DNA of 64,000 nucleotides. It comes from a bacterium (lineage in GTDB: Bacteria > Patescibacteriota > Minisyncoccia > Phycocordibacterales > VMGT01). The translations under genes were made by a program, and so were the position numbers. Location: assembly GCA_030697645.1 (NCBI GenBank), contig JAUYPI010000006.1, positions 12,017 through 76,016 on the forward strand, in the 5' to 3' direction. Shown here piece by piece: positions 42,935 to 56,106 of this stretch; the first letter of the stretch is position 1; every line of letters begins with the position of its first letter. The notes under the pieces are model-generated. The model did not search any database. It had not been told where the DNA came from and was given only the letters and a program-made list of their open reading frames with translations.

Positions 42935-44446
42935 CTAGTCGTCCACAGCGGTTGCGACGAGCGCTCCGTTCGCTGTTGCGTCTACGGGCGAGGACTTTTT
43001 TGTACCATTTGTGCCGCGACTTGTGCCACGACGGATGTCAGTGCACTCCGTGCACTCATTGAGATGCTCGAGGATGCGCTCCGTCGTCGCTTTCTTCATC
43101 CTGCCGCAGGGCATGGTGGAAATGAACTGCTTCTTGCCACTGATCAAACCGGGGGCTTTCGAAAATGCAGCGGTGTGGCCCCAGACTGCACGGAGGGCTC
43201 TGTGGTCCTCAGGAATGTCGACGAGGACGGAGACACAAGAGCGTTGGTTGTTCTCCTCTTGGAGAGCGCTGATTAACTCTCGGCTTTCATCGCGGGCGGC
43301 TTTGACCGCAGCCTCGAGTCCATCTTCAGCCTCGTTGAGCTCACCTACCAGCTCGGCTACTCTCTGCACAAACTCCTCTCTTTCCGCTGATAGTCTCGCC
43401 GCAACCCTGCTGCGGCGTCGTGCGTACCATAAACATAAAATAGTACCAACGAGCACAAACACAGCCAGCACGATCACCAACTCATGCTCGACTCGTGTCT
43501 GTTTCACTCGCGTCGCATCAAGGGTACTTTGGAGCTCCTCTTGCTCAGCAATAGCCTTCTTAATCGCGTCCTCTATCTCTTTTTTCAGCCCATCGATTTC
43601 TCCTTGTAATGTCGTGATATTCTTTGCCTGGGAGACGACTTGGTCTGCACGCTGAGTAGCCAGGTCCACGTAAGCATCATGGGCTGCCATAAGCGCCTCA
43701 AGATGCTCCGCGTAAGAAGCCTGGTTTATGCCGATGGCCTCTTTGAGATTGATGATGCTTGCCTCCGATTCAGCTAACGCCCGGCGCGTCTCCTCGAGCT
43801 CGTCCCGGCGGGCACTGTGGTCTCGGCCCATGTTTTGGAGCTCTGTCTTGAGATCAGCAGCCTTTTGCTCAGCAGTGGTACGTGCCATGTATTCCGTGCT
43901 GAGCTCCGTTGTGAGTTCAAGCACCTTGGCGAGTGTTGCGGGTGTGTCGGCGAGCGTGCCTCCACCATCGAGAACCGTAGGCAGGTTGATCGTGTAGTCC
44001 GCGCAGATCGTATTGAGATCAGTGATCTGTGGATTTTTCCTCCGCAGTGCAGAGAAATACTGCGCCCCGGTCATTGCTCCGCTGTAGTCTTGCTTAAAAC
44101 CAGACACGGTGTCACCGCGAGTAATGGTGCGCGGTTTCCAGATGTTGGGAACGCCGGCGATCACTTCTGTACGCATCTCATCCGTGAGCGGTGGGGCATT
44201 GCGCGCGCCACCACAGGACACGCGATTGGCGGTACTGTCGCCGTTCTCGATGCGTGCGGGGTTCGCTTGTACGAGCGTTCTTGAGATTACGCTTGGTTGA
44301 GGCACCCTAGTCTCAAACACCCGCGTGGCCACCTCCTCATCAAGAAATGCCACTGTCTGCGTTTGCGCCGCGATATGCGGCACTGCCACCATGAGAGTGA
44401 ATCCGAGGACCGCCATCACCGCTAGCATACTTTTCGCACTTTCCAT
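42935..44446 (-). CDS. Membrane protein with LysM-like module, long coiled coil, TM helix and C-terminal Cys-rich tail (hypothetical)
   Basis: Start ATG 44446 preceded by GAGGAGGGGAGACG. Signal/TM MLAVMAVLGFTLMVAV. ITRGDTVSGF...ICADYTINLP is LysM-like. Heptad-rich middle. TM helix IVLAVFVLVGTILCLWY. Confidence 0.65.
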   Translation of the reverse strand: MESAKSMLAVMAVLGFTLMVAVPHIAAQTQTVAFLDEEVATRVFETRVPQPSVISRTLVQANPARIENGDSTANRVSCGGARNAPPLTDEMRTEVIAGVPNIWKPRTITRGDTVSGFKQDYSGAMTGAQYFSALRRKNPQITDLNTICADYTINLPTVLDGGGTLADTPATLAKVLELTTELSTEYMARTTAEQKAADLKTELQNMGRDHSARRDELEETRRALAESEASIINLKEAIGINQASYAEHLEALMAAHDAYVDLATQRADQVVSQAKNITTLQGEIDGLKKEIEDAIKKAIAEQEELQSTLDATRVKQTRVEHELVIVLAVFVLVGTILCLWYARRRSRVAARLSAEREEFVQRVAELVGELNEAEDGLEAAVKAARDESRELISALQEENNQRSCVSVLVDIPEDHRALRAVWGHTAAFSKAPGLISGKKQFISTMPCGRMKKATTERILEHLNECTECTDIRRGTSRGTNGTKKSSPVDATANGALVATAVDD

Positions 44447-44739
44447 CGTCTCCCCTCCTCGTTTTGTTGGGAACGCATGTCGCGTTCGTTGTTTTCGCCC
44501 CGTTTCGATTAAATCAAGGAACAACCCGGGGCTTCTTCGACCCGTCCATGCCCGGTCTATGCACGATATTTCCGAGGTGCACCTTACATCCTTCTAGACC
44601 GTATGTCAAGTGACAAGACTGCAGTAATTATGGTATCCATATTTTGGTTCCGGTGTCACAGTGAAATGATTGTTGCGCCGGTTGTTCATTGAGAGTTTGG
44701 TTGTATACGTAACTCGGACACTTCACAGGGAGACAGATT

Positions 44740-45216
44740 ATGCAAATTCGTCACACGATCGTTGTACTCTCGCTCTACGGCGCTCTCGGTGCTCTTGCTA
44801 TCTCGAGCGCCTCTGCCGGCGAGCAGGGGCCATTCGGTGCCTTCAAAAGCCGTATCCGGCCTGATGCAAGCGAGCATGTGGTGCGGCAAGGGTATCTCGT
44901 GCTTGAGGAAAAAAATCGCCGAGGCGGTTTTGGTCCTGCGGAGGTCAATGTCCAGCAAAACCACTGGGGAGCCAATAATACGTGGAACGACAATCGCGGT
45001 TCCGCGATGAGTTCGAGCACTGTGGTGGGCAACCTCGACAGTATGAGCGTGAGTGGCACCGGGGACGGCTTCATACTCGAAGTTGTTGATGGAGCAACGA
45101 CCCAGGGGAATAAGGATGTCCAGCAGGAAAGCGGCGTGACGACATCAGTTGGCGGTGATGCGTCTGGCACGCAGAGTCAGCAGCGGGCAGGCGCGCACGA
45201 CAAGAAATGGAAATGA
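44740..45216 (+). CDS. Small secreted protein (hypothetical)
   Basis: 158 aa. Signal peptide MQIRHTIVVLSLYGALGALAISSASA. Gly/Ser/Asn/Gln-rich body. GGGAG upstream. Confidence 0.6.
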   Translation: MQIRHTIVVLSLYGALGALAISSASAGEQGPFGAFKSRIRPDASEHVVRQGYLVLEEKNRRGGFGPAEVNVQQNHWGANNTWNDNRGSAMSSSTVVGNLDSMSVSGTGDGFILEVVDGATTQGNKDVQQESGVTTSVGGDASGTQSQQRAGAHDKKWK

Positions 45217-45237
45217 CGGCTTTGGGAAGGAGACGAC

Positions 45238-55319: not shown

Positions 55320-55328
55320 GGGGGCAGA

Positions 55329-55680
55329 CGCATGGATGCATCGGTTACCAGCCACGTTCACTAACCATTGCTTAGGGTGCATCCATGCGCTCGGACATAA
55401 CGCGAAAGCATGCCCTTACTAAAAAACGGCTCCACTAAAAAGGGCATCTCGGTATGCTTTCGCTAAAGTGATGAGATGCGGCTTTACAACTACATTCGGC
55501 GTTCGCTATAAGCCTGATTTCCAAAGCCGCATCTCTTGGTTCAATACTGATTTGCGGGGGTAGCGTCACTATCGCGTCGTTTCGTTACGCTGTCGTTTAG
55601 CTCTACCCATCGCATTCGTCTCGTGGGAAGGCGGAATACTACAAGACCACTCCACTACCCTGCACGTTATCCGCTTTCCC
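55329..55680 (+). repeat. Stem-loop array J (5 units)
   Basis: Units 55329-55389 (GCATGGATGCA/TGCATCCATGC), 55404-55461, 55473-55535 (GAGATGCGGCTTT/AAAGCCGCATCTC), 55558-55608 (weak), 55625-55680. Loops carry TTCACTAA, TCCACTAA, TTCGCTAT, GTCACTAT, TCCACTAC. Confidence 0.8.
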
Positions 55681-55704
55681 ACTGTTACTTTAGGAGGTCT
55701 CAAC

Positions 55705-56106
55705 ATGTCGGACATGTTGACGAATCAACTGTTTGAGTTGTATGGGGCATGGAAGCAACAACAGAAAACATCCAAGACGACATCCCCGCAGAGCTTCCGG
55801 TGGTATGTCATGACACACGCGCAACTGCTGTACCGACAGCTCCAGCTTGATCCACCCATTCTTGCCTCACTTCCGAAGCAAATCCAGCGCGACTGGCGCG
55901 GCGAAAGAAGGCAGACGATTGGCCCAAAAGTGCTCAAAGAGTACGGATCTCTTATTCTCCATCTCTATCTCGCGGAGAGCGAGAAGGGCACTTGCCAGGG
56001 CACGCTTGAGGACTTCGTTAACACGGTGGTCCTCGGAGAATGCGAAACGAAGGAGGACTTACAAGCCTTCCTCAAAAAGTTCTTTCTAGACAAATTTTCA
56101 CCCTAA
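55705..56106 (+). CDS. Hypothetical 133-aa protein (gene D)
   Basis: ORF preceded by TAGGAGGTCTCAAC. No family recognised. Followed immediately by a terminator. Confidence 0.55.
   Translation: MSDMLTNQLFELYGAWKQQQKTSKTTSPQSFRWYVMTHAQLLYRQLQLDPPILASLPKQIQRDWRGERRQTIGPKVLKEYGSLILHLYLAESEKGTCQGTLEDFVNTVVLGECETKEDLQAFLKKFFLDKFSP

Follow-up and report, generated by a model that had tools for sequence, protein, structure and literature searches.

Actinobacteria, Deinococcus-Thermus and haloarchaea mix genes that are leaderless or lack a Shine-Dalgarno (SD) sequence with genes that are led by one, and such genomes form the 'group C/D' of gene finders. In Bacteroidia, the anti-SD sequence is sequestered by bS21, bS18 and bS6, and these bacteria are reportedly SD-poor, with few SD-led genes. 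Here we describe a mixture of start signals in a window of 64,000 nucleotides (nt), that is, the whole stretch of DNA analysed, from contig JAUYPI010000006.1 of a genome of the Patescibacteria (candidate phyla radiation, CPR). In this window, a block of eight SD-led genes at positions 42935-56106 stands among genes that carry SD sequences at chance level. The block is composed of two unrelated modules, B1-B4 and a four-gene cassette, B5-B8, whose genes are called A, B, C and D below.

Like the mixed-mode genomes, the locus has 5'-proximal starts without an SD and operon-internal or leadered starts with one. It is unlike them in that SD sequences outside the block are at chance level, in that the SD-led genes are clustered and not spread over operons, and in that strictly leaderless status is not established for the core genes of the window (see rpoA and the gene for a 788-amino-acid (aa) protein below). 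With Bacteroidia it shares the rarity of SD sequences throughout the lineage, A/U-rich upstream regions and a small number of genes with strong SDs; however, the SD-led genes of Bacteroidia are specific regulators such as rpsU, whereas those described here belong to accessory cassettes. In the same phylum-level group, the CCTCCT anti-SD was detected in only 48% of the 16S genes of Parcubacteria (Tsurumaki et al. 2022, PMC9297842). This fits the near-absence of SD sequences from the core genes of the window, but the survey examined rRNA and not mRNA signals, and our literature search found no study of mRNA-side translation signals in Patescibacteria.

SD sequences in the block

The SD score was calculated as the pairing of positions -20 to -3 with ACCUCCUUU, and genes with a free energy (dG) of -7 kcal/mol or lower were regarded as SD-led. 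All eight confident genes of the block (42.9-56.1 kb) carry a GGAGG-type SD that reaches this threshold, with values from -7.8 to -12.1 kcal/mol, compared with 2 of the 40 curated genes outside it, an amidohydrolase gene starting at 1109 and a zinc-ribbon gene starting at 29497 (Fisher p = 1.2e-7; Mann-Whitney p = 2e-5). The frequency outside the block is at the same level as that of random 18-mers, 5.6% of which pass. With 10 SD-led genes among the 48, a run of eight was obtained in 1 of 200,000 permutations. We concluded that the SD enrichment is real and that chance is excluded. The distance from the SD to the start codon is 5-9 nt in all of the 40 SD-led genes studied, ten from the window and 30 from relatives.

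These results agree with a first-pass annotation made from the sequence alone, which had noticed a strong SD 5-9 nt upstream of every gene in the block and none before the core genes rpsM (9778), dnaK (15663), tuf (33551), fusA (26352), nrdJ (1991), trpS (24720) and ppsA (56376). The fifteen upstream strings that it quoted, eight from the block and seven from core genes, were all found in the sequence, each in its place. It had further assigned the pattern to two small genes at 28626 and 29497; the second clearly shows it, with a dG of -12.9 kcal/mol, and the first is a plausible open reading frame (ORF) behind AAGGAAGGAGG.

The enrichment does not depend on how the starts are chosen. Under an SD-blind start rule, 6 of 9 starts in the block and 2 of 44 outside are SD-led; when the best SD over all candidate starts is taken, the numbers are 8/9 and 8/44. 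Three SD-associated starts in the block deviate from the longest ORF, and each has independent support. The alignments of homologues of A begin at 47984, the NCBI product is likewise 643 aa long, and the upstream ATG at 47885 sits within the promoter TTGACA-N17-TAATAA and is a spurious start. For B3, the orthologue in a related contig (L094, see below) uses the same SD-led GTG as at 45238. The starts at 44446 and 46931 are automatic gene calls too. The comparative evidence contradicts the start of B3 at 45271 given by NCBI and Prodigal-type calls and the Prodigal-type start of A at 47885; both errors probably reflect the training of start models on genes without an SD, which form the majority.

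The cassette in other genomes

SD-led genes were counted at cassette loci in six other CPR genomes (L082-L086 and L098) with G+C (GC) contents of 36-58%. The results showed that 22 of the 23 cassette genes are SD-led, against 16 of the 73 flanking genes (Fisher p = 1.5e-10). For cassette and flank, respectively, the counts are 4/4 and 7/17 in L082, 4/4 and 5/16 in L083, 2/3 and 1/13 in L084, 4/4 and 0/5 in L085, 4/4 and 0/12 in L086, and 4/4 and 3/10 in L098, and the partial loci L087-L093 agree. The flanking genes without an SD include those for rpsO, NusB, RNase III, IleRS, RuvA, Tig, MetK, CorA and TrpRS. The conservation of the cassette SDs argues for a functional anti-SD in those genomes, at least, that bear the cassette.

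C follows B in all seven full loci, and A precedes B in L085, L086, L088, L092 and L098. In L082 and L083 a variant order, A'-D'-B-C, was observed. As A' is not detectably related to A, the conserved core is B-C, combined with alternative partners. Homologues of A (33-39% identical) were found in the five loci in which A precedes B, and homologues of D in L084, L085, L086 and L098.

The neighbourhood of the cassette differs from genome to genome, giving seven neighbourhoods in all. The neighbours are rpsO and NusB in one genome, glycosyltransferases and FemAB/RuvA in another, and MetK and Cas12a or TrpRS and a racemase in others; further neighbours are HicB, an integrase-repeat protein and a HATPase_c_3 protein. 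In the region 11453-15909 of L084 (Sungbacteria), the cassette is found directly upstream of a Cas12a-Cas1-Cas2 CRISPR locus, an integrase and a Cas4/PD-(D/E)XK gene.

The GC content at third codon positions (GC3) of the cassette tracks that of the host but lags behind it: 0.33 in the cassette and 0.21 in the flank in L086, 0.64 and 0.53 in L085, and 0.66 and 0.75 in L082. In L098, the cassette is part of an island (2169-14802) with a GC3 of 0.75-0.91, against 0.47-0.64 in the flanking core genes, which indicates clear horizontal acquisition there. Besides the cassette, this island holds the HATPase_c_3 gene and two unknown genes, and its genes are mostly SD-led, a 676-aa gene reaching a dG of -6.6 kcal/mol only.

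The first-pass annotation had suggested that the block was acquired from, or co-evolves with, an SD-using replicon. The SD does track the cassette genes and not their place, and since the cassette is SD-led in all carriers, has differing neighbourhoods and is found in an island in L098, co-evolution with an SD-using gene pool is a fair description of the cassette half of the block. The donor replicon itself did not materialize: searches with B in IMG/VR, INPHARED and PLSDB gave no viral, phage or plasmid match, and the one PHROG match of the block is to a generic helicase.

Module B1-B4 and its relative

B1-B4 gave no significant family match, the matches of B1 being weak ones to SMC/JetC coiled coils only. 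A single homologue of B3, about 75% identical, was found among 5.8 billion proteins. It lies on contig L094, which is about 74% identical in DNA to the window, and this contig carries orthologues of B1 (35% identity), B2 (74%), B3 (76%) and B4 (67%). It also holds the 3' end of the 788-aa gene that adjoins the block on the left, together with the same hairpin, followed by an extra SD-led gene of 229 aa; the left junction of B1-B4 beside the 788-aa gene is the same in both sequences. After B4, L094 continues with a convergent pyridine-nucleotide oxidoreductase gene that is not in the window, and the cassette does not adjoin B4 there. All four SDs are kept in L094 with their GGAG core despite the diverged surrounding bases, and that of B2 is identical. 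We concluded that B1-B4 are lineage-specific, fast-evolving envelope proteins.

Initiation signals and leaders in the background

To place the window in its group, 80 genome loci around ppsA (L002-L081) were fetched and used as SD-frequency background only; neither the block genes nor the 788-aa neighbour have a homologue in them. With naive starts, the median SD frequency in about 55 Patescibacteria ppsA loci was 5% (local background 1-9%), whereas the same method gave 38-65% in three non-CPR loci (Desulfobacter, Desulfobacteraceae and Syntrophales). This suggests that SD-independent initiation is general for the group.

What takes the place of the SD is less sharply defined. The first-pass annotation had described a TAnnnT box often lying 6-10 nt upstream of the core genes, for which the support is weak: the hexamer occurs at -18 to -9 in 11 of the 40 non-block genes, and 90 pooled SD-less genes showed a broad, weak excess at -18 to -11 with no sharp positional peak. 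Leaderless geometry fits ppsA, trpS and a 69-aa ORF at 29777. To judge from their canonical promoters, rpoA and the 788-aa gene have leaders of 25-30 nt without an SD. The core genes are therefore shown to be SD-independent, while 'leaderless' is not established.

The two classes of genes differ in how far the start codon lies from the -10 box. The distance is 22-134 nt (median about 58-70) in 16 SD-led genes and mostly 6-35 nt (median about 20-26) in 12 SD-less genes (Mann-Whitney p = 0.004). At the cassette, a promoter-like site was observed upstream of A in all six loci (the window, L085, L086, L088, L092 and L098), consisting of TTGAC[A/T]-N17 and a TAnnn[T/A] -10 box (TTAGCT in L092), 40-100 nt before the start. 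In the five relatives the site was placed 70-100 nt ahead of A. TTGACA-N16-17-TAnnnT was found upstream of B in 7 of 8 loci.

Composition and borders of the block

The composition of the block is that of the host. Its GC3 is 0.644, against 0.646 in the rest of the window. In synonymous-codon usage, few contiguous gene runs of the same size are as close to the remaining genes as the block, which runs counter to a foreign composition. The real compositional outliers of the window lie at 12766-13323, 28490-29986 and 59228-60925, with GC of 0.41-0.49 and GC3 of 0.33-0.57 against about 0.65. The stretch at 28.5-29.5 kb holds both SD-led small genes, and the outlier genes at 59-61 kb are not SD-led.

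Nor is the block one unit. The hairpins or terminators at 42685, 47400, 50177 and 56107 and the promoters at 44609(-), 47866 and 50462 give at least five transcription units, and we concluded that the block consists of two unrelated modules, B1-B4 and B5-B8, and is no single foreign insert. Presence or position polymorphism in relatives, which had been proposed as a sign of acquisition, is seen for B5-B8 with its seven neighbourhoods and not for B1-B4, whose left junction is conserved. Of the two observations that had been named as speaking against acquisition, a host-like composition was found for the block and conserved synteny for B1-B4 only.

The block had been described as bounded by a terminator at 42685 and a palindrome at 56257. 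Both structures exist, and the sequence of the left hairpin, which separates B1 from the convergent 788-aa gene, is conserved in L094. The palindrome, however, belongs to the upstream region of ppsA. The true start of ppsA follows 79 nt downstream, at 56376, homology of ppsA beginning at residues 41-49 of the long ORF, and the palindrome is more likely an operator or regulatory site of ppsA than an island border. On the right, the SD-led run functionally ends at the hairpin or terminator directly after D.

The cassette resembles genomic or defence islands and mobile accessory cassettes in its distribution, which is patchy and rare, with shifting neighbourhoods. Further resemblances are the foreign composition seen in L098 and the presence of Cas12a, HicB, the integrase-repeat protein and the HATPase_c_3 protein among the neighbours. 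The window differs from such islands in its host-like composition and in lacking att sites, tRNA and genes for mobility; in particular, no integrase, transposase, tRNA or flanking att-like direct repeats were found for the block within the window.

Predicted functions of the cassette

A is mostly helical, and its family is rare: a search of 1.84 billion representatives gave only 39 relatives. It contains a segment like the helix-hairpin-helix of IS110-type transposases (Pfam Transposase_20, E 0.011, below threshold), and a sequence search against PDB gave no match. B combines a SNF2-family ATPase with a class-I S-adenosylmethionine (SAM) methyltransferase, matching Pfam SNF2-rel_dom above cutoff and Methyltransf_11/25/31, and its profile matches the PDB entry 1z63 (E 5e-12). 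An AlphaFold2 (AF2) model of B with a mean confidence (pLDDT) of 76.5 gave Foldseek matches to the cores of ISWI, RapA and Rad54 (E about 1e-14 to 1e-15). Nineteen homologues of B were found; those with names come from Patescibacteria (Sungbacteria, Uhrbacteria and the Parcubacteria group) or are labelled 'bacterium', and most have no source name. C has a putative MPG/AAG-like glycosylase fold, with a marginal match to Pfam Pur_DNA_glyco (29.7 bits; cutoff 27) that covers the N-terminal ~120 residues only. The C-terminal domain of C has a paralogous counterpart in the last 58 residues of D (hhalign probability 98%, E 6e-14).

Close to the cassette in content are the DISARM- and MADS-type defence systems, which likewise pair a SNF2-family ATPase with a SAM methyltransferase, and mad2 weakly matches the methyltransferase domain of B (E 8.5e-4). 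Unlike these systems, the cassette is not accompanied by DrmA, DrmB, DrmC or other signature proteins, its methyltransferase is of a generic class-I type (BioC/UbiG-like) and of no recognised DNA methyltransferase family, and the remaining members are one MPG-like and two unknown proteins. None of the PADLOC models, including those of DISARM, BREX and MADS, matched the cassette, the only matches in the block being the weak one to mad2 and coiled-coil ones to JetC. B5-B8 is a rare, uncharacterised four-gene cassette for predicted nucleic-acid enzymes, found only in CPR. Its target is most probably DNA, in a system for modification, repair or a kind of defence.

The non-coding gaps of the cassette are long in the window, about 980 nt at 53706-54683 and about 660 nt at 49916-50573, compared with 30-350 nt in relatives. 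The first of them holds a direct/inverted repeat pair at 53710-53821, and the gaps gave no Rfam match. The coordinates of the features are summarized in Table 1.

Table 1. Coordinates of genes, signals and motifs in the window, with the upstream strings of the block genes (dG in kcal/mol)
Feature	Position	Strand	Upstream string (start)	Details
Amidohydrolase gene	357..1109	-		SD AAAGGAG; GTG start; promoter 38 nt upstream
65-aa small gene	28626..28823	+	AAGGAAGGAGG	SD-led; two transmembrane (TM) segments; low-GC stretch
Zinc-ribbon gene	29123..29497	-		SD GAGGAGG; dG -12.9; GC 0.49
G+C-rich hairpin, left edge	42685..42711			11-bp stem and T-run
B1	42935..44446	-	GAGGAGGggagacgATG (44446)	503 aa; N-terminal TM and coiled coil; SD GAGGAGG 7 nt before ATG; dG -12.1
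B1 σ70-like promoter	44581..44609	-		TTGACA-N17-TAAGGT; implied leader ~125 nt
B2	44740..45216	+	caGGGAGacagattATG (44740)	158-aa secreted protein; SD GGGAG; dG -8.0
B3	45238..46854	+	GGAAGGAGacgacGTG (45238)	538-aa putative lipoprotein; GTG behind GGAAGGAG; dG -9.4
B4	46931..47365	+	AAGGAGttggttATG (46931)	144-aa membrane protein; SD AAGGAG; dG -7.8
Intrinsic terminator	47400..47430	+		14-bp stem, then TTTTTTT; closes B2-B4 operon
A σ70-like promoter	47866..47894	+		TTGACA-N17-TAATAA
A (B5)	47984..49915	+	GGAGGaaccgcaATG (47984)	643 aa; SD GGAGG; dG -9.3
Hairpin between A and B	50177..50215			Perfect 18-bp stem
B σ70-like promoter	50462..50490	+
B (B6)	50574..53705	+	AGAGGGGatagaccaATG (50574)	1043 aa; SD AGAGGGG; dG -8.1
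C (B7)	54684..55319	+	GGGAGGaaagaATG (54684)	211 aa; SD GGGAGG; dG -11.6
D (B8)	55705..56106	+	AGGAGGtctcaacATG (55705)	133 aa; SD AGGAGG; dG -10.9
Hairpin/terminator, right edge	56107..56136	+		12-bp stem
Palindrome	56256..56297			42 bp; 21-nt arms 95% complementary; TCCGTCATAATAACTATGCGG/CCGCATGGTTATTATGACGGA
Intergenic element, copies 1-6	7583-7681, 9638-9771, 10173-10308, 10761-10888, 11548-11674, 14173-14283
Intergenic element, copies 7-11	14767-14887, 15507-15639, 31236-31338, 34782-34908, 37488-37614
Second motif	26310-26351, 35402-35441, 13360-13386, 17695-17712			Before fusA, rplC, rplQ and dnaJ

Proposed mechanism and alternative explanations

We consider it the best explanation, with a probability of roughly 0.6, that the block holds portable, leadered, SD-dependent accessory modules in a host whose default initiation is SD-independent. 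By default, the host would start translation no more than about 30 nt from where the transcript begins, behind an A/U-rich sequence and without an SD, and its core mRNAs would accordingly be leaderless or short-leadered. The transcription units of the block would have a σ70-like TTGACA-N17-TAnnnT promoter 40-130 nt upstream, and with it a real leader, or operon-internal starts; a start that is far from the 5' end, or operon-internal without overlap to the previous gene, would need an SD. The cassette would move between Paceibacteria genomes over evolutionary time, bringing its own promoter, leader and SD, and SD pairing would be usable wherever a recipient has retained the anti-SD tail, the 16S rRNA of the present host presumably retaining CCUCC. 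In the genome of the window, the cassette would be an old resident whose codon usage has come to match the host. The SDs in the window are selected for and are not donor leftovers: they would be kept because starts distant from the 5' end cannot use the 5'-end-dependent route of the host, and modules with their own promoter and leader need a signal that is free of an exact juxtaposition of promoter and ATG.

Several points weigh against this reading. For B1-B4, the extra SD-led gene in L094 is the only sign of mobility, and for the cassette no mobility gene was detected in the window. Some accessory-looking genes of the window have no SD, namely those for histidine kinases, a FIST protein and the 788-aa peptidoglycan-binding protein, as well as the genes of low GC at 59-61 kb, so 'accessory' alone is no predictor of SD use. 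The window carries no rRNA gene and we infer the anti-SD of the host, about half of Parcubacteria reportedly being without one. A recognisable promoter was found in only 28 of 136 genes, which bases the leader-length rule on a minority of the genes, with three of the SD-less ones deviating from it. As to function, the AF2 model of A, built from 3 sequences, has a pLDDT of 52 and is unusable, and the family profile of C reaches only an E of about 0.2 against solved AAG structures.

The alternative that survives best is one of transcript architecture alone, without evolutionary meaning, in which an SD is required by any start that is distant from the 5' end, be it behind a long leader or in a non-overlapping gene within an operon, and the block is a chance run of such genes. 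It accounts for the longer promoter-to-start distances of SD-led genes, the operon-internal position of B3 and B4, and the weak SDs at the operon-internal starts 28490 (after fusA) and 60928 (rpiB). It gives no reason, however, for the long leaders of five or six transcription units in a row, and it does not sit well with a promoter-leader-SD design that is constant in seven genomes or with operon-internal core genes that have no SD (rplM, 12766 and, in L086, RuvA/PepM17). As a complete account it is therefore rather improbable, but it is compatible with the idea of portable leadered modules and forms the mechanistic half of it. Two further rules were rejected. That genes have an SD because they are operon-internal fails as a full account, at least five of the block starts being first in a unit with its own promoter or terminator; that they have one because their products are secreted or in the membrane fails on the 788-aa TM protein, which lacks an SD, and on the proteins A-D, which are cytoplasmic.

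It is unlikely that the whole 13-kb block is one recent island from an SD-using replicon, such as a plasmid, a phage or a distant bacterium, with the signals of the donor retained. The sharp switch of SD use and the hairpins at both edges, the foreign island around the cassette homologue in L098, and the absence of a Pfam family for most block proteins would suit such an origin; yet codon usage and GC3 are indistinguishable from those of the host, the two modules are unrelated and have separate promoters and terminators, and the left junction of B1-B4 is the same in the relative of ~75% identity. Neither an integrase, tRNA or att repeat nor any relative in plasmids, phages or IMG/VR was found, and the homologues of B, where named, lead back to Patescibacteria or to a mere 'bacterium', most having no source name. 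'Single' and 'recent' are thus largely refuted for the block.

Slightly less probable still is a regulatory partition, in which the anti-SD is normally hidden or barely used and SD-led genes are translated conditionally, once it becomes exposed, for example under stress or phage attack. Bacteroidia offer a precedent, and the contrast between core genes at background level across Patescibacteria and strong, conserved SDs on a few modules would fit, as would the position of the cassette beside CRISPR-Cas12a in one genome and HicB in another. Against such a partition, mundane enzymes are SD-led as well, such as the amidohydrolase in the window and glyoxalase, radical-SAM and LOG proteins in relatives.

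An artefact, either a chimeric assembly, the source being metagenome-assembled, or starts picked for their SD, as the three that deviate from the longest ORF might suggest, is very improbable in view of identical junctions in three independent assemblies, host-like codon usage, enrichment under SD-blind rules and homologue alignments that back the disputed starts.

Portable leadered modules in an SD-independent host remain the explanation that we prefer. A wider proposal goes beyond it and is tentative, with the odds against it: Paceibacteria may have two translation channels, with an SD-independent one close to the 5' end for core genes, and may keep SD/anti-SD pairing essentially for horizontally circulating accessory cassettes with a promoter, leader and SD of their own, one of which would be an undescribed, CPR-restricted DNA-modification or defence system whose translation is perhaps conditional on the state of the ribosome.

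Host genome and other features of the window

The window is bacterial, with a GC content of about 55%, and its source is a Paceibacteria-like genome of the Patescibacteria. The genes found in it include nrdJ, rpsM, rpsD, rpoA, rplQ, rplM, grpE-dnaK-dnaJ, trpS, fusA, tuf, ppsA, rpsJ-rplC-rplD-rplW-rplB and the gene of an RNB-domain (RNase II/R-type) exoribonuclease. The closest relatives of ppsA, about 63% identical, are in metagenome-assembled genomes (MAGs) of Nomurabacteria, Paceibacterota and Patescibacteria. The DNA of the window is also present in the Logan assembly of SRR13727529 and in NCBI GCA_034376905.1, and the junctions of the block are identical across three independent assemblies. 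The proteins of the block are labelled 'MAG: hypothetical protein Q8R39_...' at NCBI. A tRNA scan and an Rfam scan of the window at gathering thresholds gave no match, and a permissive Rfam scan of the block gave a chance match to mir-30 only.

The tuf-S10 ribosomal-protein cluster (33551-39003) is loosened, with genes spaced apart and gaps of up to 750 nt (36059-36810). It ends at rplB, and rpsS, rplV and rpsC do not come next in order.

Eleven copies of an imperfect palindromic element of 120-140 nt, built of CAATTTTCAA / TTGAAAATTG units around a AACACGACGTCG core, were observed in intergenic regions. Matches to its motif number 88, against 5.3 expected, and a folding energy of -41 kcal/mol (z -6.3) was obtained for one copy. 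They sit between ribosomal-protein or chaperone genes and end 10-25 nt before start codons, and none of the eleven is inside the SD-led block. The element may be a combined terminator and promoter or insulator. A second motif, CTAAAAGCTA(A/T)(A/C)AGCT, stands directly before fusA, rplC, rplQ and dnaJ.

Implications

Very little is known about how CPR ribosomes find start codons, and one rRNA survey suggested that many Parcubacteria have no anti-SD. Mixed initiation modes and accessory cassettes are both known elsewhere; here they occur in a phylum whose translation signals have barely been studied. Strong, well-spaced and conserved SDs persist on certain accessory modules in seven genomes and are absent from their housekeeping neighbours, and the locus gives a handle on whether CPR ribosomes still use SD pairing. 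For annotation, the rule follows that gene callers trained on an SD-less core mis-start SD-led genes, as at 47885 and 45271. A run of SDs in an SD-less background is, in addition, a signature for accessory or mobile CPR modules, even after their composition has come to match that of the host.

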